A DNA stretch of 55,564 nucleotides from positions 1 to 55,564 of IMG/VR virus record IMGVR_UViG_3300034251_000009; one strand, written 5' to 3'. Under the pieces are notes generated by a model. That model saw only the letters and a program-made list of their open reading frames with translations. It was not told where the DNA came from and made no database searches. This stretch comes from a virus (lineage: Duplodnaviria > Caudoviricetes). Below, piece by piece: positions 1-55,415 of this stretch. The stretch's first letter is position 1. The number at the start of each line of letters is the position of its first letter. A program made the position numbers and the translations under genes.

Positions 1-127
1 ACCGTGCAGGCAGTCCATCATCCAACACCGTTGTGCCTGGTCAAGGCCCTTTCGGGGTGGCGTTGTCACCACGCGGCAGGTGACCCCTCTATTCGGTGGG
101 GTCCTTCACCTCGGTTGCGGTGTCACC
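1..127 (+). repeat. Terminal direct repeat, left copy (circular contig overlap)
   Basis: 1..127 is identical to 55438..55564. Confidence 0.97.
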
Positions 128-682
128 GCCCCAGGATGCGAACATCCGGAAGATGTCGCGGCTGTCCTTCAGCACCGACTGCCAGTCCGGGCGCAGGGGC
201 TCGACGTCGAGTTGCGTGATGCAGAAGATCAGCACCTCTTCGACCGACATCCGCCGGCCGGGCAGGTGATGCTTCTTGCTGATCACGCCCTTGTCGCTGA
301 GCTGAGTGGTGCCAAGGTGCATGTGCGGGTCCTTCACCGGCCCACCATCGGGGTGCCAGTGAAAGCCGATCACCTCGGCCTCGTCAACGCGCTGCAGCGT
401 GTGCATGTAGCCGCGGGTCGAGACCTTGTACGGCCCCTTGATCTTGTCCTCCGGGATGTGGACAATTTCGTACTGGATGCCCAGGTCAAGCGTGTAGATG
501 TCGCCGTCGCGGCGTTGCACGGGCACCGGTTCGCCGCCACTCCAGGCCAGCGAATGAACACGGCCCAGCTCTTTCCAGCCCCCATTGCTGATGATGAACG
601 GGGTCAGCGTCATGCAGGATGCGGCCCGCTGGAGGGGCTCCAGGAAGTTCGCGACCGCCTGTGATGGGCTCTTACCGGGCAA
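89..682 (-). CDS. Putative toxin, TumE-like His-rich protein
   Basis: TTG start overlapping upstream gene; FHWHP..PHMH..HHLP motifs; paired with small antitoxin-like gene. Confidence 0.55.
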   Translation of the reverse strand: MPGKSPSQAVANFLEPLQRAASCMTLTPFIISNGGWKELGRVHSLAWSGGEPVPVQRRDGDIYTLDLGIQYEIVHIPEDKIKGPYKVSTRGYMHTLQRVDEAEVIGFHWHPDGGPVKDPHMHLGTTQLSDKGVISKKHHLPGRRMSVEEVLIFCITQLDVEPLRPDWQSVLKDSRDIFRMFASWGGDTATEVKDPTE

Positions 683-881: not shown

Positions 882-1166
882 GCTTCCCCTCCTCTCAGTC
901 AGCATCGTGGCACGGACTGCCGTCGACAGGAAACCAACACTAGGCCCGACCTACGACATTTTCTGCCCCACGCCCCAGCGGGCCTGTCAGGCGGGTCCCA
1001 CGACTGCCAGGGCCAACGAGTCAGACCAGGCCGGATGATTGCTGCGACCGATAGCCGACAGCTGCCGCCGAAGACCAAGGTGACCTCGGTGGAGTACGTG
1101 TCCTCCGGCACCCCGCTGACCTGGCAGGTACGGTGAAGTAGACAGCAGGCCCAGATACAGCGAAGC

Positions 1167-1195
1167 GGCCCCGCACTCCTGATGGAGGCGGGGCC
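1167..1195 (-). terminator. Hairpin terminator of the XRE-CYTH-barrel operon
   Basis: GGCCCCGC(A)CTCC-TGAT-GGAGGCGGGGCC stem-loop just past the stop at 1210. Confidence 0.6.
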
Positions 1196-1209
1196 ATCTT
1201 GTGTCTGGG

Positions 1210-1578
1210 CTAGTCGATAAGTCCGAGGTCCCACCGGCCCGTATTGATCGTCTCGTGCTTGCCGAAACCGACCCACCTGCCGGCCAGGCGACGGCCGTCC
1301 GGGTCCGCGAGGAACTGCAACGCGCCGTGGAACCGGGCGCCGGCGTAGTGACCGCCCGGATCGGTGATCTCGGACCAGGTGCCCGTGATCACCCGGCCGT
1401 CGATCACCAGCGACATAGTCAGGGACGACGGAGCGCTGGGGACGGACCGGACCGTGAGCCGGTCGCCGTCCTGCTCGATCCGCACCTGATGCACGCCGGT
1501 GAACTTCGCATCACGACTGGTCGAGTGGTACTCGTAGACGCTGGCCCAGAGGCCTGCGTAGTTCTGGCCGGGTTCCAC
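1210..1578 (-). CDS. Stand-alone beta-barrel domain (type usually fused to actinobacterial XRE regulators; Cap15/streptavidin-like barrel by resemblance)
   Basis: GTG after AGGAGG; GLWASVYEY..TGTWSE..G.Y.GARFHGALQF..GRW.G..NTGRW all-beta pattern. Confidence 0.65.
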   Translation of the reverse strand: MEPGQNYAGLWASVYEYHSTSRDAKFTGVHQVRIEQDGDRLTVRSVPSAPSSLTMSLVIDGRVITGTWSEITDPGGHYAGARFHGALQFLADPDGRRLAGRWVGFGKHETINTGRWDLGLID

Positions 1579-1591
1579 GATGACCTCCTGG

Positions 1592-2152
1592 CTACGACCG
1601 CTGGCGGGCCGCGCGGACCGCGTCGGTGTACAGCTCGTTGGTGAGCTCGCCGTCGGCGACACCCAACTGGTGAAGCACCGACCGGACCGCCTTCAGCGCC
1701 TCGGCTACCTGGTCCTCCTCGGCCATGGTCTCGACCTCGAGGAACGTGCCGTCGATCTCCGGCACGCGGACGAGGGTGGCCAGGAAGTGCCGGCCGTCGC
1801 CGGTGAGCTGGTAGTTCTCGCAGTCCTTGGTGAGCTCGACGACCGGCGCGTACCCGAGGGCCTGGACCATGTGCGTGACGGCGTCGGGCGTGGCCACGGT
1901 GGTCTCGTGCTCGGGCTTCGACCCGGACGCCTCGTCGACGACAGGCTCCTTGAAGGTCAGCAGGTGCCGCACCGTGTCCGGGGTCTCGACGGTTCGAAGG
2001 CGCAGCTCCCGGCCTGCCGCTTCGAGGGCGCCGTCGGGGGTGTCGAAGTAGGTGTCGTGGTAGACGGCCTTCTCCGGGTCGGCGCGCTGGTCGAGGGCTG
2101 CGCGGACAGCGTCGGGGTTCTCCAGACGGGCCTTCAGCTCGGCTTCGATCAC
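1592..2152 (-). CDS. CYTH-domain protein (class IV adenylate cyclase / triphosphate tunnel metalloenzyme)
   Basis: N-terminal ExExK (IEAELKA), DTYFD, LRLR, LTFK, EHET, FLEVE and terminal LY motifs. Confidence 0.9.
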   Translation of the reverse strand: MIEAELKARLENPDAVRAALDQRADPEKAVYHDTYFDTPDGALEAAGRELRLRTVETPDTVRHLLTFKEPVVDEASGSKPEHETTVATPDAVTHMVQALGYAPVVELTKDCENYQLTGDGRHFLATLVRVPEIDGTFLEVETMAEEDQVAEALKAVRSVLHQLGVADGELTNELYTDAVRAARQRS

Positions 2153-2162
2153 GACTGTCTCC

Positions 2163-3008
2163 TCAGATGACGCGGCGGGCGTGGTCGTGCAGGTCTTCGA
2201 ACTGGCGCCGGTAGCCGGCCCAGAACGCACCGCGGGGCGTGTGCGGGATCTCGTAGATCGTGGACTCGTGGCCTTCCCACTTCGCGTCGAAGGACGACAC
2301 CCAGGCCAGGTCGTCGATCCGGAAGTACCGCCACACGGGCACGCGGTCGTAGAGGCTCACCTCCAGGTCGACGTTCGGGGCGAGCTCGCGGACCTCTTCG
2401 AGCCGGGCCAGCGCCAGTTGGATGCCTGCGGCGAACGAGGCTGGCGATTCGCCAATCTCCGATGCGCGTCGCCGGGCGGCGTCGCTCTCCGGTTCGAGCA
2501 GCAGGACGCGTACTTGCAAGGGCTTTTTGCGGGCGAGCAGCGACGGGCGTAGCAGGCTGTCGTTCAGCCCGATGATGCCGAGGGCGCGTACGGCCAGGAT
2601 GTCTAGCTGGCTGGCGTCGCTGGCACGCCGTCGGATCTCAGCGACGACTGGCCCCTGGTGGGGATAGTGCCGGGTGATCTCGGTAGTGCCGCTGGCGTAC
2701 TTGCTGTTGGGGTTACGAGGCGAGAGCCCGAGGGCCATTCTGCACAGGTCCGGCATGTTGAGTCCGTCAGCGATTCTCGTGAGGACGTCGAGCTGGGTTA
2801 CGGCCTTTTTCCCGTTGATGATCTCGCTGATTCGACCTTGGGTGATGCCGGTTGCCCCGGCTATCCGCAGCTGGCTCGCGCCGCCGTACTGCTGAGCGAA
2901 CTTCAGCAGGCCAGACACGTCGCGGTTGCGGATGATCTCAGCGGTCTCGGGTCTTTGCCACGCCCAGTCGGCGATGCGTATCTGGTCGTGGAGCGACGCT
3001 ACGGACAA
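2163..3008 (-). CDS. XRE-family HTH regulator with C-terminal DUF5919-like domain
   Basis: SQLRIAGATGITQGRISEIING HTH; VRVLLLEP..RASE, LYDRVPVWRYFRIDD C-terminal pattern. Confidence 0.8.
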   Translation of the reverse strand: MSVASLHDQIRIADWAWQRPETAEIIRNRDVSGLLKFAQQYGGASQLRIAGATGITQGRISEIINGKKAVTQLDVLTRIADGLNMPDLCRMALGLSPRNPNSKYASGTTEITRHYPHQGPVVAEIRRRASDASQLDILAVRALGIIGLNDSLLRPSLLARKKPLQVRVLLLEPESDAARRRASEIGESPASFAAGIQLALARLEEVRELAPNVDLEVSLYDRVPVWRYFRIDDLAWVSSFDAKWEGHESTIYEIPHTPRGAFWAGYRRQFEDLHDHARRVI

Positions 3009-3037
3009 GACGAACCCCCACTCAATCCACTGCCGAG

Positions 3038-3054
3038 TATCTCACCTTGAGATA
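3038..3054. promoter_or_regulatory. Palindromic operator candidate upstream of the XRE gene
   Basis: TATCTCA-CCT-TGAGATA perfect 7-bp inverted repeat. Confidence 0.55.
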
Positions 3055-3110
3055 GCCAGCGGGGGATCGAATGAGGACTGTTCGTTCACGACCGTGGAGG
3101 CATGGATCTC

Positions 3111-3566
3111 TTAGGCCACCACGTCGGGTCGCATACCCAGCTTTCGGTGGGCAGCGTCCATCTGCTCCGTCGTCGGCCGAGCGGGCAATTTGGCGCCCGG
3201 CTCGCGAAGGAACCACCCCAAGAACTGGCGCAGAACGTCTGTTCGCGTCAGGCCCATGGCCGCAGCCGCAGCCCCGAACTCGTCCCAGAGGGCATTGCTC
3301 ACCCGCAGCGATCTGATAGGCGTCTTCCCGCGCTTCTGTACGTTGCGCAGCGCCCCCTCGGTTCGGATGGCCTCGGTTTCCTCTGCGTCGGCAGTGGCTC
3401 GACTCTCGTGCCAGACGACCTCGATACGGGCCTGCTTGCTCCACCAGTCGGCATTCTTCTCGTGGTATCGCCAGCGAGTCATCAGATCCACAGTGATGCC
3501 GACGTAGATCAGGTTGTCCCCGGCGTCGAAGAAGCGGTAGACCGCTGTCCTCTCGTTCTCCGTCAT
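3111..3566 (-). CDS. GIY-YIG-like domain fused to ribbon-helix-helix DNA-binding domain
   Basis: AVYRFFD..LIYVGIT..R..H..E..AI..E..N, then TPIRSLRVSNALWDEF..RTDVLRQFL. Confidence 0.75.
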   Translation of the reverse strand: MTENERTAVYRFFDAGDNLIYVGITVDLMTRWRYHEKNADWWSKQARIEVVWHESRATADAEETEAIRTEGALRNVQKRGKTPIRSLRVSNALWDEFGAAAAAMGLTRTDVLRQFLGWFLREPGAKLPARPTTEQMDAAHRKLGMRPDVVA

Positions 3567-3817
3567 GCCTCTGACACCTTCTCGTCGCCTGCCCGGCTAC
3601 CCAGCTTGCGGTTCAGGGTGGCGCGATTCAGCCCCGTGATCCGGCAGAGCTGGGTGTCAGGCACACCGGCCTCACGGGCCTTGCGCGCCTTCTCCCAGAT
3701 AGCCTGTTCGGCTGCCTGGCTGACCTGGTGGGCGTGCTCGATCGCTGCGTTCACCTCGTCGAGCAACTTGCGCTGCTCATCGGTACCTCGCCAGGTCGGC
3801 CGGATCACGGTTGGCAC
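3563..3817 (-). CDS. Small HTH DNA-binding protein, candidate repressor (Kor-like) of the divergent transfer operon
   Basis: GTG after GGGGAG; AREAGVPDTQLCRITGLNRATLNRKL helix-turn-helix. Confidence 0.7.
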   Translation of the reverse strand: MPTVIRPTWRGTDEQRKLLDEVNAAIEHAHQVSQAAEQAIWEKARKAREAGVPDTQLCRITGLNRATLNRKLGSRAGDEKVSEA

Positions 3818-3829
3818 GTTATCACTCCC

Positions 3830-3905
3830 CTGTCTCGCGGTCTGTCTTCTGTTGACACACTCTCTGTCGGGGGTTACTGTCTCATCAGTAGACATTAACC
3901 GTCAA
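3830..3905 (+). promoter_or_regulatory. Sigma70/HrdB-type promoter of the transfer operon with overlapping divergent promoter and CTGTC repeats
   Basis: TTGACA(3852)-17 nt-TACTGT(3875); minus-strand TTGACG at 3905-3900; CTGTC at 3830, 3842, 3864, 3877. Confidence 0.7.
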
Positions 3906-4736: not shown

Positions 4737-4981
4737 GGGCCCGTACCCGCAACATCTTGACCGTGGTCTCGCTGGTCTACATCTCGGCGGTCGCCTACCT
4801 GTTCACCGTGCTGTCGTTGCGGACGTTCAACGCGCTGCTGGCGACGGTGGTGGTGCCGCTGGTGTGGCTGGTGTGGTCGTTCTGCCGCTGGTCGGCGCAC
4901 CAGCATTCGGAGCGGTGGGCTCGTGACATCGAGAAGGTCCACGGCAGCCGGCCGGTGCGTCAGGGGGTGACTGCCCGATGA
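4733..4981 (+). CDS. Small two-TM membrane protein (82 aa), Spd-like context
   Basis: ATGA coupling; two hydrophobic segments. Confidence 0.7.
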   Translation: MRARTRNILTVVSLVYISAVAYLFTVLSLRTFNALLATVVVPLVWLVWSFCRWSAHQHSERWARDIEKVHGSRPVRQGVTAR

Positions 4982-6213
4982 CGATCACCGACAGCGGGCG
5001 CCTGTCCGAGCAGGAGATGGCCAAGGCGCGGGAGTTGTACGCCAGCGGGGTCAGGTCGAAGGACGGTCTGCGCAAGGGCCTGGGCGTCGCGTGGGCCAAG
5101 GCAGTCGAGGCTCACACCCGGCTGACCGCCGAGGACGACGAGCGCCGGCGGCAGCAGGTCGAGGAGCGCCGGTCGCGGCTCGTGAAGTTGCGACCACGGA
5201 AGAGCCGGGCGTCGCGTCTGCCGGTCCGTCGCACACCTCTTCCGGAGGCCCCGGTCTCTCCTGCTGTCGAGGCGGTCCCTGAGCTGTTGTCTCCGACCGC
5301 CGAGATGGTTCCGGTAGAGGTGCCGACTCCGGATTCGGTAGCCGTTCCGGCCTCTACTGGAGGCGCTGGTTCGGTGAAGCCGACGACGATCGTGGCGTTG
5401 GTCCTGTCGATCTCTGCAGCTGCGGTCATTGGCGTGTCCGCCCCGGCTTTGCTGGCCCTTTCCGGGCGGGCCGCGGTCGCTGCCGCAGCCGTGGCGGTGC
5501 TCGCTTTGGTCGGCGCGGTCTGGTCGACGGCGACCTTGGCCCGGGCGCTGGTCGCCGGTCGCACGGCGCGGGACGTGGCGCTGGACCTGGCGTCGTGGGC
5601 CGTGGCGGCCGTGGCGGGGTTCCTGGCCGCGTATGGGCAGGTCAAGTTCGCTGAATGGGCGGGCGTGACCGGCTGGGAGAAGTGGCTTGTTCCCGGCATC
5701 CTCGAGCCGGCCGTGGTCGTGCTGTTGCTGCTGGCGAACCGGCGGGTGAAGCGGCGCCGGGCCGGGTTCCCGGCCAAGCCGATCGGCAAGTTGCTGGCCC
5801 TGGCGGCTCTTCTGGGCGGGTTCGCCGTCTACACCAATGTGGTTCACACCGGTGGCAAGGCCGGGCTGGTGTTCGGCGCCGCGACGGTCGTGGGTCTGAT
5901 CCTGTGGTGGGTCAAACTCCAGGACGATGCGGCCCCTGACGACTGGGATGACGCCCCGCAGTCCAAGCGGCTCTCCCGGAAGACCTCCCGGTACCGGCTT
6001 CTGCGCTGGTTGATCCTCTTCCCGCAGACCCGCCGGGCGTGGCTGATCAGCCTTGATCACTCCATCTCCGACGCGGAGGTGGGTTTGGATCTGGCGCGCC
6101 GCTGGCGGCGGTCTTTCGACGAGTCCCGAGACGCCGGTGAGAGTCGCCGTAAAGCTCGCCGGGACGCATCCGTGCAGGTCGACAAGTACCTGCTCAACGA
6201 GAAGGAGAGCTGA
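4978..6213 (+). CDS. DUF2637/Spd-like multi-pass membrane protein with N-terminal HTH-like segment
   Basis: AYGQVKFAEWAGVTGWEKWLVPGILE..YTNVVH pattern of DUF2637 spread proteins; 6-7 TM helices. Confidence 0.75.
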   Translation: MTITDSGRLSEQEMAKARELYASGVRSKDGLRKGLGVAWAKAVEAHTRLTAEDDERRRQQVEERRSRLVKLRPRKSRASRLPVRRTPLPEAPVSPAVEAVPELLSPTAEMVPVEVPTPDSVAVPASTGGAGSVKPTTIVALVLSISAAAVIGVSAPALLALSGRAAVAAAAVAVLALVGAVWSTATLARALVAGRTARDVALDLASWAVAAVAGFLAAYGQVKFAEWAGVTGWEKWLVPGILEPAVVVLLLLANRRVKRRRAGFPAKPIGKLLALAALLGGFAVYTNVVHTGGKAGLVFGAATVVGLILWWVKLQDDAAPDDWDDAPQSKRLSRKTSRYRLLRWLILFPQTRRAWLISLDHSISDAEVGLDLARRWRRSFDESRDAGESRRKARRDASVQVDKYLLNEKES

Positions 6214-8114: not shown

Positions 8115-9854
8115 ATGGCAGAGCAGAAGGACGAGCACAGCCTCGGTGAAGTGTTGTGGCGTTACGTCGCAGGGCGCCCCCTGGATGGCCGCGACGGATA
8201 CCCGTACCTGCGCGCGGGGGCCGGCCTCGTGGCAGGCTGGCAGCGGCAGGCGTGGCGTCTTGTCGTCCCGACGGCGGGTGTTGCGACTGCCATGGACCCT
8301 GACTTCCAGCACGTCACCGGCGTTGGCGGTCTCGCTCTGCTCGCGGCGGTTAGGGGCCGCCAGCAGGTCGTCCGGCGGCGGTTCCACCGTGAGTACATCG
8401 CCCCGACGTTGGCTGCGATACAGCCGCCGCTGGGGATGCAGGGCGATGGCGTGACCCTGTACGTGGATGCGTCCCTGGGCAACCTGACCCCTCGGCTGGC
8501 CAAGCCGTTGTCGCCGGCGGAGGAGCGTCTGCGCGTCCTCTACGGCGAGCGGATCGAGCCGGTCGTGCGGTGGTTGCCGGAGCAGATACAGCGTGGTCTG
8601 TGGGCGGTGCAGCGTGCGGCACGGCCGGCGACATCGCGCATGGAGGTGTTCCGGCGTCCGGGTGAGCAGTTGGGTCCGCGTATCGAGCTGGTCGCGCGGA
8701 CGCCGTATCTGACCAGTGAGCAGCGGCTGCTCGTGTCGTCGATCATCAACAGCAAGATTCCGGTGTCTGACCTGGTGGAGTCGTGGCATCAGGTCGGCCC
8801 GAAGGTGACCGCCCGGTGGGTCGTGCGTAAGCGGCCGCCGTCGACCGTCGGGTACGACCTGGTTCTGGAGCACATGGCCCATCTGAAGGAGTGGGAGTTC
8901 TACATCGGCCAAGGTGCCGGGAACCGGCCGGTGGTCATCTCGCTGAAGGACGACTCTCCGCACATCGCCGTCAGCGCAGGTACCGGCGCCGGGAAGAGCG
9001 TGCTGGCCATGCTCATCGCGGTGCAGATCCTGGCTCGCGGTGGCGAGGTGCTGATCCTGGACCGCAAGGGCTCTCATCGATGGGCACTCGGCATGGAGGG
9101 CGTGGACTACTGCACGAAGGCCCACCAGATGCACGAGGCGCTGATCAAGTCGGCCGCGGAGGCAGATCAGCGCAACGACGATGCCCTGCACGAGGAGGAG
9201 GACTGGGATCCGGGCAAGCGCAAGCTGGTGATCTGCGAGGAGCTGAACGCGACGATCGGTCAGCTGAACAACTACTGGGCGGAGATCCGGGAGAAGAGCG
9301 ACCCGAAGAAGTCGCCGGCGGTGTCGGCCCTGGCTGATCTGCTGTTCATGGGTCGTTCGGCGAAGTACAACGTTCTGGCGATCGCTCAGATGCTGACGGC
9401 CCGGGCGATCGGCGGGCCGGAGGCGCGGGAGAACTTCGGGGTGCGGTGTCTGGCCCGGTACACCTCGAACAACTGGAAGATGCTGGTGCCGGAGGCTGCG
9501 ATGCCCCGGTCGTCACGGACGCTGGGCCGGTGGCAGGTAGTAATCGGTGGGCAGGCTACTGAAGTTCAGGTGGCCTTCCTGACGAACGCGCAGGCTCGCG
9601 CCCTCGGAAATCCGCGAAAAGACCCTGATAGCGCCCTGGGCAGCAATGTCCCTGGGGACGGGGACATGATGACCTTGCGGGACGCGATCGATGCCGGTGT
9701 TTTGCCCTGGTCGTACGAGGCGGCCAAGAAGCGGCTGCAGCGCGATGTCGGTAACCCACCGTCATCGCGCGGGAAGCGGGCCAACGCGGATCTGTACGCG
9801 CGCGCCGACCTGGCGGCGTGGGTGGTCCGGTCCCGGCAGGAGGTTCCGTCGTGA
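8115..9854 (+). CDS. traB: TraB-like FtsK/SpoIIIE-family conjugative DNA translocase
   Basis: N-terminal hydrophobic segment; Walker A AGTGAGKS, Walker B LVICEE, MGRS..AIAQ motif, ARENF; C-terminal wHTH-like domain; Spd-like neighbours. Confidence 0.8.
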   Translation: MAEQKDEHSLGEVLWRYVAGRPLDGRDGYPYLRAGAGLVAGWQRQAWRLVVPTAGVATAMDPDFQHVTGVGGLALLAAVRGRQQVVRRRFHREYIAPTLAAIQPPLGMQGDGVTLYVDASLGNLTPRLAKPLSPAEERLRVLYGERIEPVVRWLPEQIQRGLWAVQRAARPATSRMEVFRRPGEQLGPRIELVARTPYLTSEQRLLVSSIINSKIPVSDLVESWHQVGPKVTARWVVRKRPPSTVGYDLVLEHMAHLKEWEFYIGQGAGNRPVVISLKDDSPHIAVSAGTGAGKSVLAMLIAVQILARGGEVLILDRKGSHRWALGMEGVDYCTKAHQMHEALIKSAAEADQRNDDALHEEEDWDPGKRKLVICEELNATIGQLNNYWAEIREKSDPKKSPAVSALADLLFMGRSAKYNVLAIAQMLTARAIGGPEARENFGVRCLARYTSNNWKMLVPEAAMPRSSRTLGRWQVVIGGQATEVQVAFLTNAQARALGNPRKDPDSALGSNVPGDGDMMTLRDAIDAGVLPWSYEAAKKRLQRDVGNPPSSRGKRANADLYARADLAAWVVRSRQEVPS

Positions 9855-51573: not shown

Positions 51574-52338
51574 CTAGGTGACCGGGGCGCGCAACGCCTG
51601 CCAGGCCTGGTCGAACAGGGGGCGGTCGGCCTCGGTGTAGCCGTAGACCGAGCGCAGGGCGCCGTCGACGAACCGGTCCACCTTCTGCGGGTCGCGGCCG
51701 TGGGCGCCGACGTACAGGCCCTTGACGCGGACGCCGAGCTTGGTCGACACCGACCGCAGTTCGGAGCCCTTGATCCCCTTGTCCTGCAGGTATTCGCCGA
51801 CGGTCAGCGGACGGGACGCCGGGTCGATCTCGGGCTCTTCGCCCAGGGCGCGGGCCGCGACGTGCCGGGCCTTGGCCTCGAGCCAGGCGCCGTCGACCAG
51901 GCCGCGCAGCGACTGGAGCACGCGGGCCTGCCCCTCGGCCCGGTTGATGAGGTCGGCCAGCTGGTCCTCGGTGGCGCGGGAGTTGATCGCGCCGCCTTTG
52001 GTCCAGTACGCCTCGATGGCGTCCGCGACCTCGGACTGGTAGGCGATGAGGATCGGACGCGCCTCGTCGGAGACGCGCTTCTCGTCGATGGTGGCGAGGA
52101 GCATCAGGAAGGTCCGGACGTCAACGGTGGCGTGCTCGCGGGCCTGGATGTCGCCGGGGACCTGCGTAGTCACCGTGACTACGCGGCCCCAGGACCTGCC
52201 TTTGAGCTTGCGCAGCTGGTTGGAGTAGTTGATCCCCAGAGGCTCGACGGCTGGCCGCAGGAAGATCTGGGGTTTGCCGTCGACGTCGGTCGCGAGGACC
52301 TCGCCGCCGTTGAAAGGGATGCGAACGATGTCGGTCAT
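51574..52338 (-). CDS. Phage antirepressor (P22 Ant N-terminal-like)
   Basis: IPFNG..LRP.VE.LGI.Y.NQ.RKLK..LATI..V..YQ.E..YW..G.AIN. Confidence 0.85.
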   Translation of the reverse strand: MTDIVRIPFNGGEVLATDVDGKPQIFLRPAVEPLGINYSNQLRKLKGRSWGRVVTVTTQVPGDIQAREHATVDVRTFLMLLATIDEKRVSDEARPILIAYQSEVADAIEAYWTKGGAINSRATEDQLADLINRAEGQARVLQSLRGLVDGAWLEAKARHVAARALGEEPEIDPASRPLTVGEYLQDKGIKGSELRSVSTKLGVRVKGLYVGAHGRDPQKVDRFVDGALRSVYGYTEADRPLFDQAWQALRAPVT

Positions 52339-52768: not shown

Positions 52769-52982
52769 GGGAGGAACGCTAGACCTATCCGTCCGTGGAT
52801 AGCAACAGAACATGCGTCATCTGAAGGGGTGGTTTCCGGGGACGGATCGGACTAGTTAGCCTTCCGTTCATGGAAGACATGACCATGAGTGGATACGCCC
52901 GTCACCGAGGGACGGCGGTGGTGATCCCCCGTCCGCGACCCGCCGGGGACGACCTACGCCTAGACTCCTTCCACATGCGGAA
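52759..52982. promoter_or_regulatory. Immunity region with five 14-bp operators WTCCR-N4-YGGAW
   Basis: Sites at 52759 (one mismatch), 52787, 52834, 52862, 52969; sixth at 53462. Confidence 0.8.
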
Positions 52983-53400
52983 AGGGTCGGACGAGCCAAC
53001 GGAGTTCGGATACTTCGTCATGGCCAAGATGGCGGAGCACGACCCGCCTCTGAGCCAGGCCGAGCTGGCCCGGCGTACCGGCGTGGGTCAGGCCACCATC
53101 TCGCGGTGGATCTTCTCCCCCGGCCGGCCGAACTCGGAGAAGCTGCGCCTGCTCGCCAATACCCTCGGCGTGGACTACACCCAGCTGCTGACCATCGCCG
53201 GGTACGGGGCGCCCTCCGAGGACATCACCGACGCGCTGTCCGAGCTCCGCCCGGAGGTCGACCCGCTGTCCGGGGAGCTGTCGGCGATGCTCGCGCCGGG
53301 CTCCGCACTGAGCGATGAGGACCGCGCGTTTCTGCGCCATACGGTCGACCGGTTGATCGACCCTTATCGAAGGACCATGCGCCGTCGCCGTTCAGCGTGA
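52975..53400 (+). CDS. CI-like XRE repressor
   Basis: LSQAELARRTGVGQATISRW..P..L..LA.TLGV; TAGACT -10 box 8 nt before this ATG (alternative start 52870). Confidence 0.88.
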   Translation: MRKGSDEPTEFGYFVMAKMAEHDPPLSQAELARRTGVGQATISRWIFSPGRPNSEKLRLLANTLGVDYTQLLTIAGYGAPSEDITDALSELRPEVDPLSGELSAMLAPGSALSDEDRAFLRHTVDRLIDPYRRTMRRRRSA

Positions 53401-53547: not shown

Positions 53548-53955
53548 ATGCACAAGCTACGTATCGTCGGCATCGGGGCCGCCATCACGTCCGCCCTCTG
53601 TGCCATCGCAGCCATCTGCGCCCACCACTACGAACTGCCGTTGGCCAGGGCATATCTGGTCGTGACCGCTGCCGGTGCGGGGTTCTCGGTCATGCCGATC
53701 TACTGCACGACGGTCGCCGTACGTGCCTTGCGGGGAGCCCGCGAAGAGGTCCACGACATCGTCACCGCGGAGACCCGGGCCCTGCATCGGGCCATGGTCG
53801 TCACCATGGAGCAATACGGTGACAGGAGGGCCGTAGACGCGGTCATTGCCGCCGAACGGCGCCACGCGCTGAACGAACGGGGCGTGGAAACCACCGATTT
53901 GCAGTACGTCGGACGGGTGAACACCGGCAACGTGACGCCCATACGTAAACCCTGA
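53548..53955 (+). CDS. Two-TM membrane protein coupled to the integrase
   Basis: RBS GGAGG; two hydrophobic helices; TGATG overlap with int. Confidence 0.75.
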   Translation: MHKLRIVGIGAAITSALCAIAAICAHHYELPLARAYLVVTAAGAGFSVMPIYCTTVAVRALRGAREEVHDIVTAETRALHRAMVVTMEQYGDRRAVDAVIAAERRHALNERGVETTDLQYVGRVNTGNVTPIRKP

Positions 53956-55415
53956 TGGCCGGTAGTCGTGCACGGCTGGCCGCGGTGCCGCAACGGCCGC
54001 TGCGGGTGGTGCTCTACGTGCGGGTCAGCGCGCTGATGGGCCGCGGGGGACGCGAGAACTTCCACAGCCCGGACGTGCAGATCGGTGCGATGCGCCGGCT
54101 GACCGAGAAGATGCGCGAGATCGCCGTCGTCCAGGACCTCGACCGCGGCGGTCGCAACTTCGACCGTGAGGGCATCATCCGGATCCGCCGTATGGCCGAG
54201 CGCGGTGAGGTGGACGCCCTGGCCGTCTATGACGTCAGCCGTCTCGGCCGCAACGTGCGCGAGTCCCTGGAGTTCCTCGCCGACCTCGCCGACCGCGGGG
54301 TGGTCATCCTCAGCGCCAGCGAGCACGTCGACACCTCCGATCCCGCAGGCCGGCTGATGCTGACCAACATGCTGGCCATCGCCGAGTACCGCTCGGATGA
54401 GATCGGCCGGTCCTGGTCGGCGGCGATCGCCCGGCGCGCCGAGAAGGGCGTGCACCACGGCAACCCGATCGGCTACACCCGCGTGGACGGCAAGCTGCGC
54501 CCCGACCCGATCCTGGGCCCGGCCGTGGCAAAGATGTGGGCCGACTACGCCGCCGGGCTGCCCATTTCGCAGATCTGCCGCGAGCTCGCCGCGGTGCGGG
54601 GCGGGAAGATGCAGGCCAGCATCGTCAAGAAGGCGTTCCGCCGGCCCGTCTACCTCGGCCATGTGGTCGCCGACGGGCAGGTCGTCGTCCGTGACGCGCA
54701 CCCCGCGCTGGTCGACCAGGCCACCTGGGAGATCGTGCAGTTGCGTCTGGCCGCCGACCGGACCACCCCGCCCCGGGCGCTGCAGGTGACCTGGGCGCTG
54801 GTCGGTATCGCCTTCTGCCCCTGCGGTGCCCGCCTGCAGCGCAACCCACGCCTGCGCAAGGGTGTGCTCGAGCAGCGGCTCAAGTGCGGCAAGGGCCCGT
54901 CGCGGGGCATCGTCGGCGAGCACTGCCCGGGTATCGGGTTCCCGATGATGGACCGGATCCAGGACGAGGTGCTGCGCCAGGTCGCCGAGTACGTCCGGCA
55001 GTTGCGTACCGACGACGTGGCCCGCTCCGAGCAGCTGCTGCGCCGCACCAACGCGATGGCCGACGGCCGGGCGCTGCGCCGCCGCCTGTCCCACGTCCAG
55101 GAGGCTGTCGCCAAGCTGGCCCGGTCCTGGGCCCTGGGCGACCTGACCGACGACGAGTTCCGCCCGGCGACCGCGCAGCTGCGCTCGGAGGCGGAGGCGT
55201 TGCGGGCCCGGCTGGGCGAGCTCGGTGATGTCGAGTCGCGGCCCACCCCGGAGGAGGCGGCCTCGGCGGCGGAGGCGCTGGTGGAGATGTGGCCGGACAT
55301 GCTGGTCTCGGAGCGGAACCTGGCGCTGCGGGCGTTGGTGGAGCGGGTGGTGGTCAGGCGCGCGGATCGGTGGCGTGAGCCGGAGGCCGACCGGGTCATG
55401 ATCACCTGGCGTTAG
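53955..55415 (+). CDS. int: Large serine integrase
   Basis: YVRVS catalytic Ser, DVSRLGRN, recombinase domain PIGY..HPALVD..W, zinc ribbon CPCG..C..C, coiled coil. Confidence 0.95.
   Translation: MAGSRARLAAVPQRPLRVVLYVRVSALMGRGGRENFHSPDVQIGAMRRLTEKMREIAVVQDLDRGGRNFDREGIIRIRRMAERGEVDALAVYDVSRLGRNVRESLEFLADLADRGVVILSASEHVDTSDPAGRLMLTNMLAIAEYRSDEIGRSWSAAIARRAEKGVHHGNPIGYTRVDGKLRPDPILGPAVAKMWADYAAGLPISQICRELAAVRGGKMQASIVKKAFRRPVYLGHVVADGQVVVRDAHPALVDQATWEIVQLRLAADRTTPPRALQVTWALVGIAFCPCGARLQRNPRLRKGVLEQRLKCGKGPSRGIVGEHCPGIGFPMMDRIQDEVLRQVAEYVRQLRTDDVARSEQLLRRTNAMADGRALRRRLSHVQEAVAKLARSWALGDLTDDEFRPATAQLRSEAEALRARLGELGDVESRPTPEEAASAAEALVEMWPDMLVSERNLALRALVERVVVRRADRWREPEADRVMITWR

Follow-up and report, generated by a model that had tools for sequence, protein, structure and literature searches.

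Here, we present an analysis of a three-gene operon in the viral genome IMGVR_UViG_3300034251_000009, an IMG/VR virus record that was analyzed over its whole length of 55,564 bp (hereafter, the window). The operon encodes, in this order, a regulator with an XRE-type helix-turn-helix (HTH) and a DUF5919-like domain, a CYTH enzyme (CYTH), and a small beta-barrel protein (the barrel). An earlier note on this DNA had suggested a signaling triad in which CYTH writes a nucleotide signal, the barrel reads it, and the regulator is the responding transcription factor. Our analysis does not support this triad: the determinants of cyclases are missing from CYTH, the three genes do not co-occur in the other loci that we examined, and the phage has a single operator. 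Rather, we found that the regulator and CYTH genes form a two-gene cassette that recurs in different contexts behind a conserved palindrome, that CYTH has the signature of a triphosphatase, and that the barrel gene is a local addition. The explanation that we favor, and to which we give about an even chance, is a mobile, self-repressed, and ligand-gated triphosphatase cassette that is carried as lysogeny-side cargo together with a lineage-specific sensor-type barrel.

The regulator and CYTH genes form a two-gene cassette

Our analysis of gene co-occurrence covered 91 regulator loci, i.e., Streptomyces phage mu1/6, two Kutzneria genomes, 8 viral contigs, and the best 80 of 119 metagenome contigs. 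In 83 of these loci, the gene that comes next after the regulator encodes a CYTH homolog; among the remaining eight, seven contigs end at or inside the regulator gene, and one locus (L015) matches the HTH only. The CYTH match is partial in L017, L018, and L069. The two genes are separated by 11-43 nucleotides (nt) in 69 of the 70 full-length pairs and by 238 nt in the last one (L095). Using tblastn as well as a family hidden Markov model on six-frame open reading frames (ORFs), we detected the barrel in none of the 91 regulator loci; similarly, neither CYTH nor the regulator is encoded beside the barrel domain in any of the 31 other viral contigs that have this domain. The neighborhood survey, therefore, does not support that the three genes represent one unit, as had been assumed in the earlier note. 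Two of the three outcomes that had been named beforehand as telling against a signaling module, namely, a triphosphatase-type CYTH and a lack of co-occurrence of the three genes, were thus found in silico. We conclude that the barrel gene is a lineage-specific third gene, which, among the loci examined, is found with the cassette only in the window.

The closest relative of the cassette is in the phage contig L016. The two regulators are 94% and the two CYTH proteins 79% identical, and the homology is a single DNA block of 1,470 nt (87% identity) that begins at position 3072, 64 nt ahead of the regulator gene, and ends 8 nt short of the CYTH stop, with unrelated flanks on either side. Downstream of CYTH, L016 has a lipoprotein-like ORF and a serine recombinase gene in place of the barrel gene. 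More generally, no neighbor family is present in more than 9 of ~80 loci; after ORFs of <100 amino acids (aa) were dropped, the 145 neighbor ORFs of 64 loci matched 63 Pfam families, of which the commonest was found in 5. These neighbors include resolvase, antirepressor, amidase, and relaxase-type ATPases as well as housekeeping enzymes (DHDPS, SodN, CorA, and RNase J). The sharp boundaries of the homology with L016 and the variable flanks argue that the regulator and CYTH genes travel together between contexts as a two-gene cassette.

The distribution of the cassette is patchy. A scan of genome contigs with the regulator as a single protein returned the two Kutzneria loci, and in a class-wide sample, a full-length regulator match was present in 1 of 401 genomes, i.e., the Kutzneria genome at the center of the sample; the barrel query had no match in this genome. 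An exact search of viral contigs for the 18-nt junction gave 13 chance matches, none of which was accompanied by any of the three genes. In three phages (the window, mu1/6 with gp1-gp2, and L016), the cassette adjoins an integrase gene.

CYTH has the signature of a triphosphatase and not of a class IV cyclase

CYTH matches PF01928 with 75.2 bits (gathering threshold of 23.2; E = 7.3e-21), and its signature comprises ExExK at residues 3-7, R51xR53, K68, E81/E83, K109, and E139xE141. At least 98% of 70 homologs retain E3, E5, R51, R53, K68, E81, E83, K109, E139, and E141, and at least 90% retain K7, while E3, E5, K7, R51, R53, K68, K109, E139, and E141 are invariant across 33 aligned CYTH sequences. 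The assignment to the CYTH family made in the earlier note is, thus, confirmed, with every residue of the triphosphate tunnel kept.

According to Vogt et al. (2021; PMC8233210), class IV cyclases carry the HF motif four positions ahead of ExExK; in addition, the first arginine of xRxR gives way to a small residue, and alanine replaces the second glutamate of ExE. The HF motif is not present in CYTH, in which two residues precede ExExK and in which an in-frame upstream extension reads EE at this place. Moreover, unlike in the cyclases, the first arginine of xRxR (R51) and the second glutamate of ExE (E141) are invariant. The aromatic residue of the W/YxRxR motif of thiamine triphosphatases is also not present in CYTH, which reads E49-L-R51-L-R53. 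In a comparison of the CYTH family profile with PDB, PH1819 (3.8e-23) and SaTTM (1.8e-15) were the nearest structures, while the class IV cyclases (3n0y, 1.5e-4; 2fjt, 2.5e-4) were the weakest of 12 matches. As reported by Vogt et al. (PMC8233210), SaTTM was shown experimentally to be a triphosphatase that makes no cyclic nucleotide. Because all three cyclase determinants are contradicted and the profile is nearest to PH1819 and SaTTM, we conclude that CYTH is a predicted hydrolase-type triphosphate tunnel enzyme rather than a class IV cyclase, and the previously suggested function as a cyclic-nucleotide writer is disfavored. None of the PADLOC 2.0 models (E ≤ 10) matches CYTH.

In RefSeq, the CYTH homolog of phage mu1/6 (gp1 of NC_007967; L002, 325-885) is named "class IV adenylate cyclase." Judged by the determinants of Vogt et al. 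(2021), this name is probably a misannotation.

A conserved palindrome upstream of the regulator gene is a candidate operator

The palindrome at 3038-3054, which the earlier note had singled out as a regulatory site, reads TATCTCA-CCT-TGAGATA (7-3-7, perfect) and is supported as such a site by its conservation. ATCTCA-N3-TGAGAT (with at most one mismatch) is present within 150 nt upstream of the regulator gene in 69 of 77 loci, in 46 of them exactly, while the 436,920 nt of these loci contain no other occurrence. The eight loci without the motif are L026, L033, L038, L063, L065, L066, L067, and L088. The best upstream inverted repeat in most loci is ATCTCAC-N-GTGAGAT or a near variant, and this palindrome is also located upstream of the regulator gene in L012, the IMG/VR copy of mu1/6. 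Of 76 upstream regions, 51 have inverted repeats with arms of at least 7 nt, compared with 123 of 1,520 shuffles. Because the motif is conserved upstream of the regulator gene and absent elsewhere in the loci, we suggest that the palindrome is the conserved operator of the XRE regulator and that the regulator is predicted to bind it in autoregulation.

In eight loci (L048, L056, L058, L059, L083, L084, L085, and L087), two adjacent operator palindromes, scored as 14-nt arms, lie upstream of the regulator gene, suggesting that two regulator dimers may bind cooperatively. The window has one exact operator copy, and a second site with two mismatches is within chance expectation (expected, 0.5). 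This single copy speaks against control of other phage promoters by the regulator via the operator, and we found no sign of the control over the choice between lysis, lysogeny, and conjugation that had been considered for it.

The regulator combines an XRE-type HTH with a DUF5919-like domain

By itself, the HTH of the regulator scores below the Pfam cutoffs (HTH_31, 22.5 versus 27; HTH_3, 20.8 versus 23). However, PF13560 is present in most of the 120 listed relatives of the regulator, and the family profile matches the HTH of C.BclI and HipB in PDB; these matches to PDB are confined to the HTH, and none was obtained for DUF5919. The C-terminal part scores 23.4 against the Pfam model of DUF5919 (PF19319; cutoff of 23.5), and PF19319 is among the precomputed matches of three close relatives of the regulator. 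In the Atlas, the model of the C-terminal 160 residues matches PF19319 clusters with template modeling (TM) scores of 0.82-0.86, including proteins with the HEPN_SAV2148-DUF5919 architecture. The structural match, thus, agrees with the DUF5919-like assignment that had been made by resemblance. The invariant residues of the regulator are R141, R154, R167, R181, E184, E187, W226, R227, D232, H247, and Y252. In Anantharaman et al. (2013), the fusion partner in SAV_2148 is listed as "Phospholipase D nuclease"; an HKD motif was not evident when we read the DUF5919 alignment. Among PADLOC 2.0 models (E ≤ 10), the regulator matches generic HTH models only, and our literature search found no mention of DUF5919.

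In L006 and L007 (genomes G302 and G370), the N-terminal 90-150 residues of the regulator match ORFs of 553 and 572 aa. As judged from these alignments, some actinobacteria have the same type of HTH joined to C-terminal regions that are different and longer.

The barrel has a Cap15-type fold and is part of XRE regulators in other viral contigs

The barrel matches no family in Pfam, NCBIfam, PADLOC, or PHROGs. Nevertheless, at E ≤ 0.001, 427 relatives were identified in a set of 1.84 billion representatives; the closest relatives of the barrel are P0004 and P0005 (69% and 62% identity, respectively). Using an alignment of 89 relatives, AlphaFold predicted an eight-stranded barrel with a predicted local distance difference test (pLDDT) score of 95.4; the fold from the single sequence (pLDDT of 49.6) was discarded in favor of this model. 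While the sequence profile had no match in PDB, the top fold match there is the cyclic-dinucleotide receptor of Cap15 (7n34; E = 6e-5; TM scores of 0.62/0.68; 17% identity), as expected from the Cap15-like fold that the earlier note had proposed. It is followed, with similar TM scores, by the handle domains of TbpB and NHBA, lipocalins, and designed barrels. In BFVD, Mx8 p58 is the first match, and a Cap15-type protein is at rank 5 (TM score of 0.63). In the Atlas, XRE regulators match with TM scores of 0.94-0.96, and a Cap15_CD_rec cluster with 0.74/0.60; a cluster of TIR_2/GNAT proteins (~451 aa) also matches the barrel structurally (TM score of 0.79).

The 122-aa protein is all barrel, with no transmembrane segment. 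Neither the barrel nor the family members with hydrophobic N-terminal segments match PF18153 or a PADLOC model at E ≤ 10. A cGAS/DncV-like nucleotidyltransferase (CD-NTase) is not encoded by the adjacent genes, which are those for CYTH, the XRE regulator, and two orphan proteins; the remainder of the window was not scanned for this enzyme. Thus, the model supports a Cap15-type fold; because a profile match, a transmembrane segment, and an adjacent CD-NTase are all lacking, membership in the Cap15 family is not supported.

Based on regular-expression and hydropathy heuristics, the 151 barrel representatives comprise 51 stand-alone proteins, 24 fragments, and 5 tandem duplicates; an N-terminal HTH is recognizable in at least 18, two hydrophobic segments are present in 2, and a further 51 have other extensions, including one NB-ARC fusion. 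This fusion protein is P0124 (547 aa), in which the barrel domain follows an NB-ARC STAND ATPase. The architectures with NB-ARC, with two hydrophobic segments, and with TIR_2/GNAT are typical of the sensor domains of conflict systems. In all of the 31 other viral contigs (L096-L126), the barrel (47-59% identical) is the C terminus of an XRE protein of ~245-260 aa. A divergently oriented gene for a DUF6907 protein lies upstream of the HTH-barrel gene in 10 of the 31.

Gene layout and genomic setting

The tight three-gene operon on the minus strand that had been described for this region is present, although with corrected gene starts (Table 1). The longer ORFs for CYTH and the barrel (212 and 150 aa, respectively) run into the upstream genes and have no support among homologs, and 33 of 33 aligned CYTH homologs begin with M-I/V-E-A-E-L-K; we, therefore, adopted the shorter starts. 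The hairpin reported after the third gene was also recovered, as GGCCCCGC/GCGGGGCC at 1167-1195, i.e., 14 nt beyond the barrel stop. The 76-nt hairpin RNA has a folding energy of -45.2 kcal/mol (z = -5.47), and equal stability was reached in 0 of 200 shuffles. We suggest that it is a factor-independent terminator that lacks a T tail; a simple terminator scan called no terminator on the minus strand.

Table 1. Features of the window. Positions refer to the 55,564-bp record unless given as residues.
Feature	Position	Strand	Remarks
Regulator (281 aa)	3008..2166; stop, 2165-2163	-	TTG start
Regulator domains	HTH, residues ~35-90; DUF5919, residues ~120-281		N-terminal XRE-type HTH; C-terminal DUF5919
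CYTH (186 aa)	2152..1595; stop, 1594-1592	-	GTG start; GGAG upstream; 10 nt past regulator stop
Barrel (122 aa)	1578..1213; stop, 1212-1210	-	GTG start; AGGAGG upstream; 13 nt past CYTH stop
RNA hairpin	1142..1213; core stem, 1167-1174/1188-1195	-	After barrel stop; without T tail
Inverted repeat, imperfect (61 nt)	3016..3076	-	Perfect core TATCTCA-N3-TGAGATA at 3038-3054; centered 39 nt upstream of TTG start
Serine integrase	53955-55412
HTH_3 protein	52870-53397
P22-type antirepressor	51577-52338

The record has direct terminal repeats of 127 nt, and its G+C fraction is 0.65-0.73. Based on genes for a portal, a tape-measure-like protein, a DNA polymerase, a primase, a serine integrase, an HTH_3 protein, and a P22-type antirepressor, the window is a temperate tailed phage of a high-G+C (actinobacterial) host. 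Across the terminal repeat, the three-gene cluster is ~1.3 kb from the integrase gene. The terminal repeat and the serine integrase make the proposed location near the phage attachment site (attP) plausible, while attP itself is a putative site.

Two ORFs on the minus strand, of 77 aa (672-905) and 197 aa (89-682) and with an 11-nt overlap, lie between the hairpin and the end of the record; neither has a match in Pfam, NCBIfam, PADLOC, or PHROGs, which makes them a second pair of orphans in the cargo region close to the integrase gene. The gene that immediately precedes the operon, at 3111-3566 on the minus strand, encodes a GIY-YIG endonuclease joined to an Arc-like repressor segment (phrog_16880, 1.7e-17; phrog_6506, 4.4e-10); next to it, at 3563-3895 on the same strand, lies the gene for a small Xre-like/HTH_7 protein. 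On the plus strand, this tailed phage genome also encodes a DUF2637 membrane protein (4978-6210) and a HerA/FtsK-like ATPase (8115-9851); genes of these two types are typical of the integrative conjugative elements of actinomycetes.

A model for the cassette and its alternatives

In the model that we infer for repression, ligand, substrate, and biological role, the regulator would bind ATCTCA-N3-TGAGAT in front of its own gene and repress the operon. CYTH, which resembles SaTTM and PH1819, would hydrolyze a triphosphate, i.e., inorganic triphosphate (PPPi), a nucleoside or deoxynucleoside triphosphate (NTP or dNTP), or a triphosphorylated signal or analog, and would make no cyclic AMP. The Arg/His-rich pocket of DUF5919 may sense a phosphate-rich ligand, most simply the substrate or product of CYTH. 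Ligand binding would lift repression, such that the output of the hydrolase would track the level of the ligand. Because the cassette is located on the lysogeny side beside the serine integrase, it is probably cargo that is expressed from the prophage. The third gene would be a free copy of the barrel that in other actinophages forms the C-terminal (sensor or dimerization) domain of XRE regulators; we speculate that, rather than being a partner of CYTH, this copy most likely acts alone, either by binding a ligand or by serving such regulators as a decoy.

Several observations weigh against this model. The neighborhoods of 64 loci mix phage or mobile genes with housekeeping genes and have no enrichment of defense islands; because of this and because neither CYTH nor the barrel matches a PADLOC model, a role of the cassette in conflict is a guess from its location and mobility. 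CYTH marginally passes the TIGR00318 cyaB equivalog model of NCBIfam (58.7 versus a cutoff of 57.95), and the cyclase determinants come from the network analysis in one paper (PMC8233210). The idea that DUF5919 may be phospholipase D nuclease-like has one table entry in Anantharaman et al. and our reading of the alignment as its basis. The promoter scan returned no sigma-70-like promoter for the operon. Finally, the barrel gene has a strong ribosome-binding site and shares a transcript with CYTH, and there may be a functional link between the barrel and CYTH in the window phage.

The favored model has to be weighed against several other readings. We consider it highly unlikely that the operon is a second-messenger module with CYTH as a class IV cyclase writer, the barrel as a reader or sponge, and the DUF5919 regulator responding to the product. 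This reading could draw on the cyaB model score just over the cutoff, on the RefSeq name of the mu1/6 homolog, on the Cap15 cyclic-dinucleotide receptor as the best characterized fold match of the barrel, and on the sensor-like contexts of the barrel (two transmembrane segments, fusions to NB-ARC and HTH, and the structural match to TIR/GNAT); however, HF is missing before ExExK, both arginines of RxR are invariant, as is the second glutamate of ExE, the cyclase structures rank last among the 12 PDB matches, and the barrel is missing from all 91 of the other regulator-CYTH loci. The order of the genes with the regulator first, their very short spacing, and the conserved palindromic operator would also fit a toxin-antitoxin-like or abortive pair, in which CYTH would be a growth-arresting NTP/ATP triphosphatase that the regulator restrains by repression, and possibly by direct binding, until it is freed upon phage attack or loss of the element. 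The patchy distribution (full-length in 1 of 401 genomes of the class) and the variable, partly mobile context point in the same direction. Nevertheless, we find such a pair improbable: a regulator of 281 aa with a conserved pocket-like domain is unlike typical small antitoxins, no toxin-antitoxin or defense model matches CYTH, and many copies are located on multi-megabase chromosomal contigs. Moreover, no triphosphate tunnel metalloenzyme (TTM) is known to be a toxin.

A repressor together with an enzyme is the standard layout of inducible catabolic operons. The cassette could, therefore, belong to accessory metabolism and provide substrate-inducible detoxification of triphosphate or polyphosphate, with no role in conflict, passive carriage by phages, and the barrel as a hitchhiker; besides this layout, the housekeeping neighbors in some loci (DHDPS, SodN, CorA, and RNase J) and the lack of a match to defense models are in line with such a function. 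We judge it to be unlikely, given that the cassette lies beside integrases in three temperate phages and is also present in 7 further viral contigs, and that sharp boundaries and a patchy distribution are as expected for selected mobile cargo. A different possibility, doubtful yet appreciable, concerns the barrel alone, which may work independently of CYTH as a decoy that heterodimerizes with the HTH-barrel regulators of competing actinophages or as a sponge for cyclic nucleotides of the host. That stand-alone receptor domains serve phages as sponges is an established principle, and the barrel domain is the C terminus of an XRE regulator in 31 of 31 other viral contigs, matches XRE regulators in the Atlas with TM scores of 0.94-0.96, and has a Cap15-type fold. 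On the other hand, the window phage has no HTH-barrel gene, generic eight-stranded barrels (TbpB, NHBA, lipocalins, and designed barrels) score nearly as well as Cap15, and stand-alone forms are common outside phages (51 of 151 representatives). The widest reading joins the two parts. The barrel family would consist of distant Cap15-type receptors that actinophages have joined to XRE domains, yielding one-component regulators that heed a cyclic-nucleotide signal of immunity or development, with the free copy as a sponge, while the cassette, as a new conflict module, would sense and destroy a triphosphorylated signal or chain terminator or deplete NTPs; together, they would form a counter-immunity island near attP that is expressed in lysogens. 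We regard this joint reading as quite improbable.

Altogether, our analysis defines a compact and widely conserved cassette, and knowledge of the operator sequence makes its regulation directly testable. It also removes a misleading annotation, in that the "class IV adenylate cyclase" of mu1/6 and many actinobacterial relatives are triphosphatases by their sequence signature. If the cassette or the barrel does act in phage-host conflict, a triphosphate-hydrolyzing arm and a family of HTH regulators with a Cap15 fold would be added to the biology of actinophages.

Comparison with known systems

The nearest described counterpart of the cassette is gp2-gp1 of Streptomyces phage mu1/6 (NC_007967), in which the same two genes, annotated as a helix-turn-helix protein and a "class IV adenylate cyclase," are found in the same order (47.6% and 54.1% identity, respectively) at the genome end near the integrase gene, as in the window; unlike the window, mu1/6 lacks the barrel gene. 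We found no functional study of this gene pair in the literature and no work linking CYTH with XRE in Streptomyces. Among the titles listed on CYTH or TTM enzymes in phage defense or on class IV cyclases in prophages, none concerns the cassette, and the matches to a literature search for triphosphate tunnel metalloenzymes and anti-phage functions were reviews of archaeal second messengers.

Of the enzymes with solved structures, SaTTM (Saci_0718) and PH1819, which are archaeal-type TTMs, are the nearest relatives of CYTH and have ExExK, RxR, and ExE in common with it; in contrast to these, the CYTH cassette is bacterial and phage-borne, and CYTH always comes with its own dedicated regulator. 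CyaB (YpAC-IV, 3n0y), a class IV adenylate cyclase, belongs to the same CYTH fold family; the phage enzyme scores marginally over the cutoff of the cyaB model but lacks HFxxxxExExK and, in RxR and ExE, retains the first arginine and the second glutamate, respectively. Cap15, an effector of the cyclic oligonucleotide-based antiphage signaling system (CBASS), combines two transmembrane helices with a cyclic-dinucleotide receptor barrel. The phage barrel shares this fold, and the family members P0104 and P0122 have two N-terminal hydrophobic segments as a Cap15-like trait; however, the phage barrel itself has no transmembrane segment, no match to PF18153 or PADLOC, and no adjacent CD-NTase, and generic barrels score similarly. 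HEPN proteins of the SAV_2148 type share the DUF5919 part with the C terminus of the regulator (TM score of 0.86), but in these proteins DUF5919 is fused to HEPN, while in the phage regulator it is fused to an HTH. Finally, repressors of the CapW/BrxR type, which consist of a winged HTH and a WYL domain, gate defense operons through a C-terminal sensor-like domain and a palindrome at their own promoter. The phage regulator is similar to CapW/BrxR in being a putative repressor encoded upstream of the genes that it would control, with a C-terminal sensor-like domain and a palindrome at its own promoter, and differs from them in the class of the HTH and in the sensor domain.

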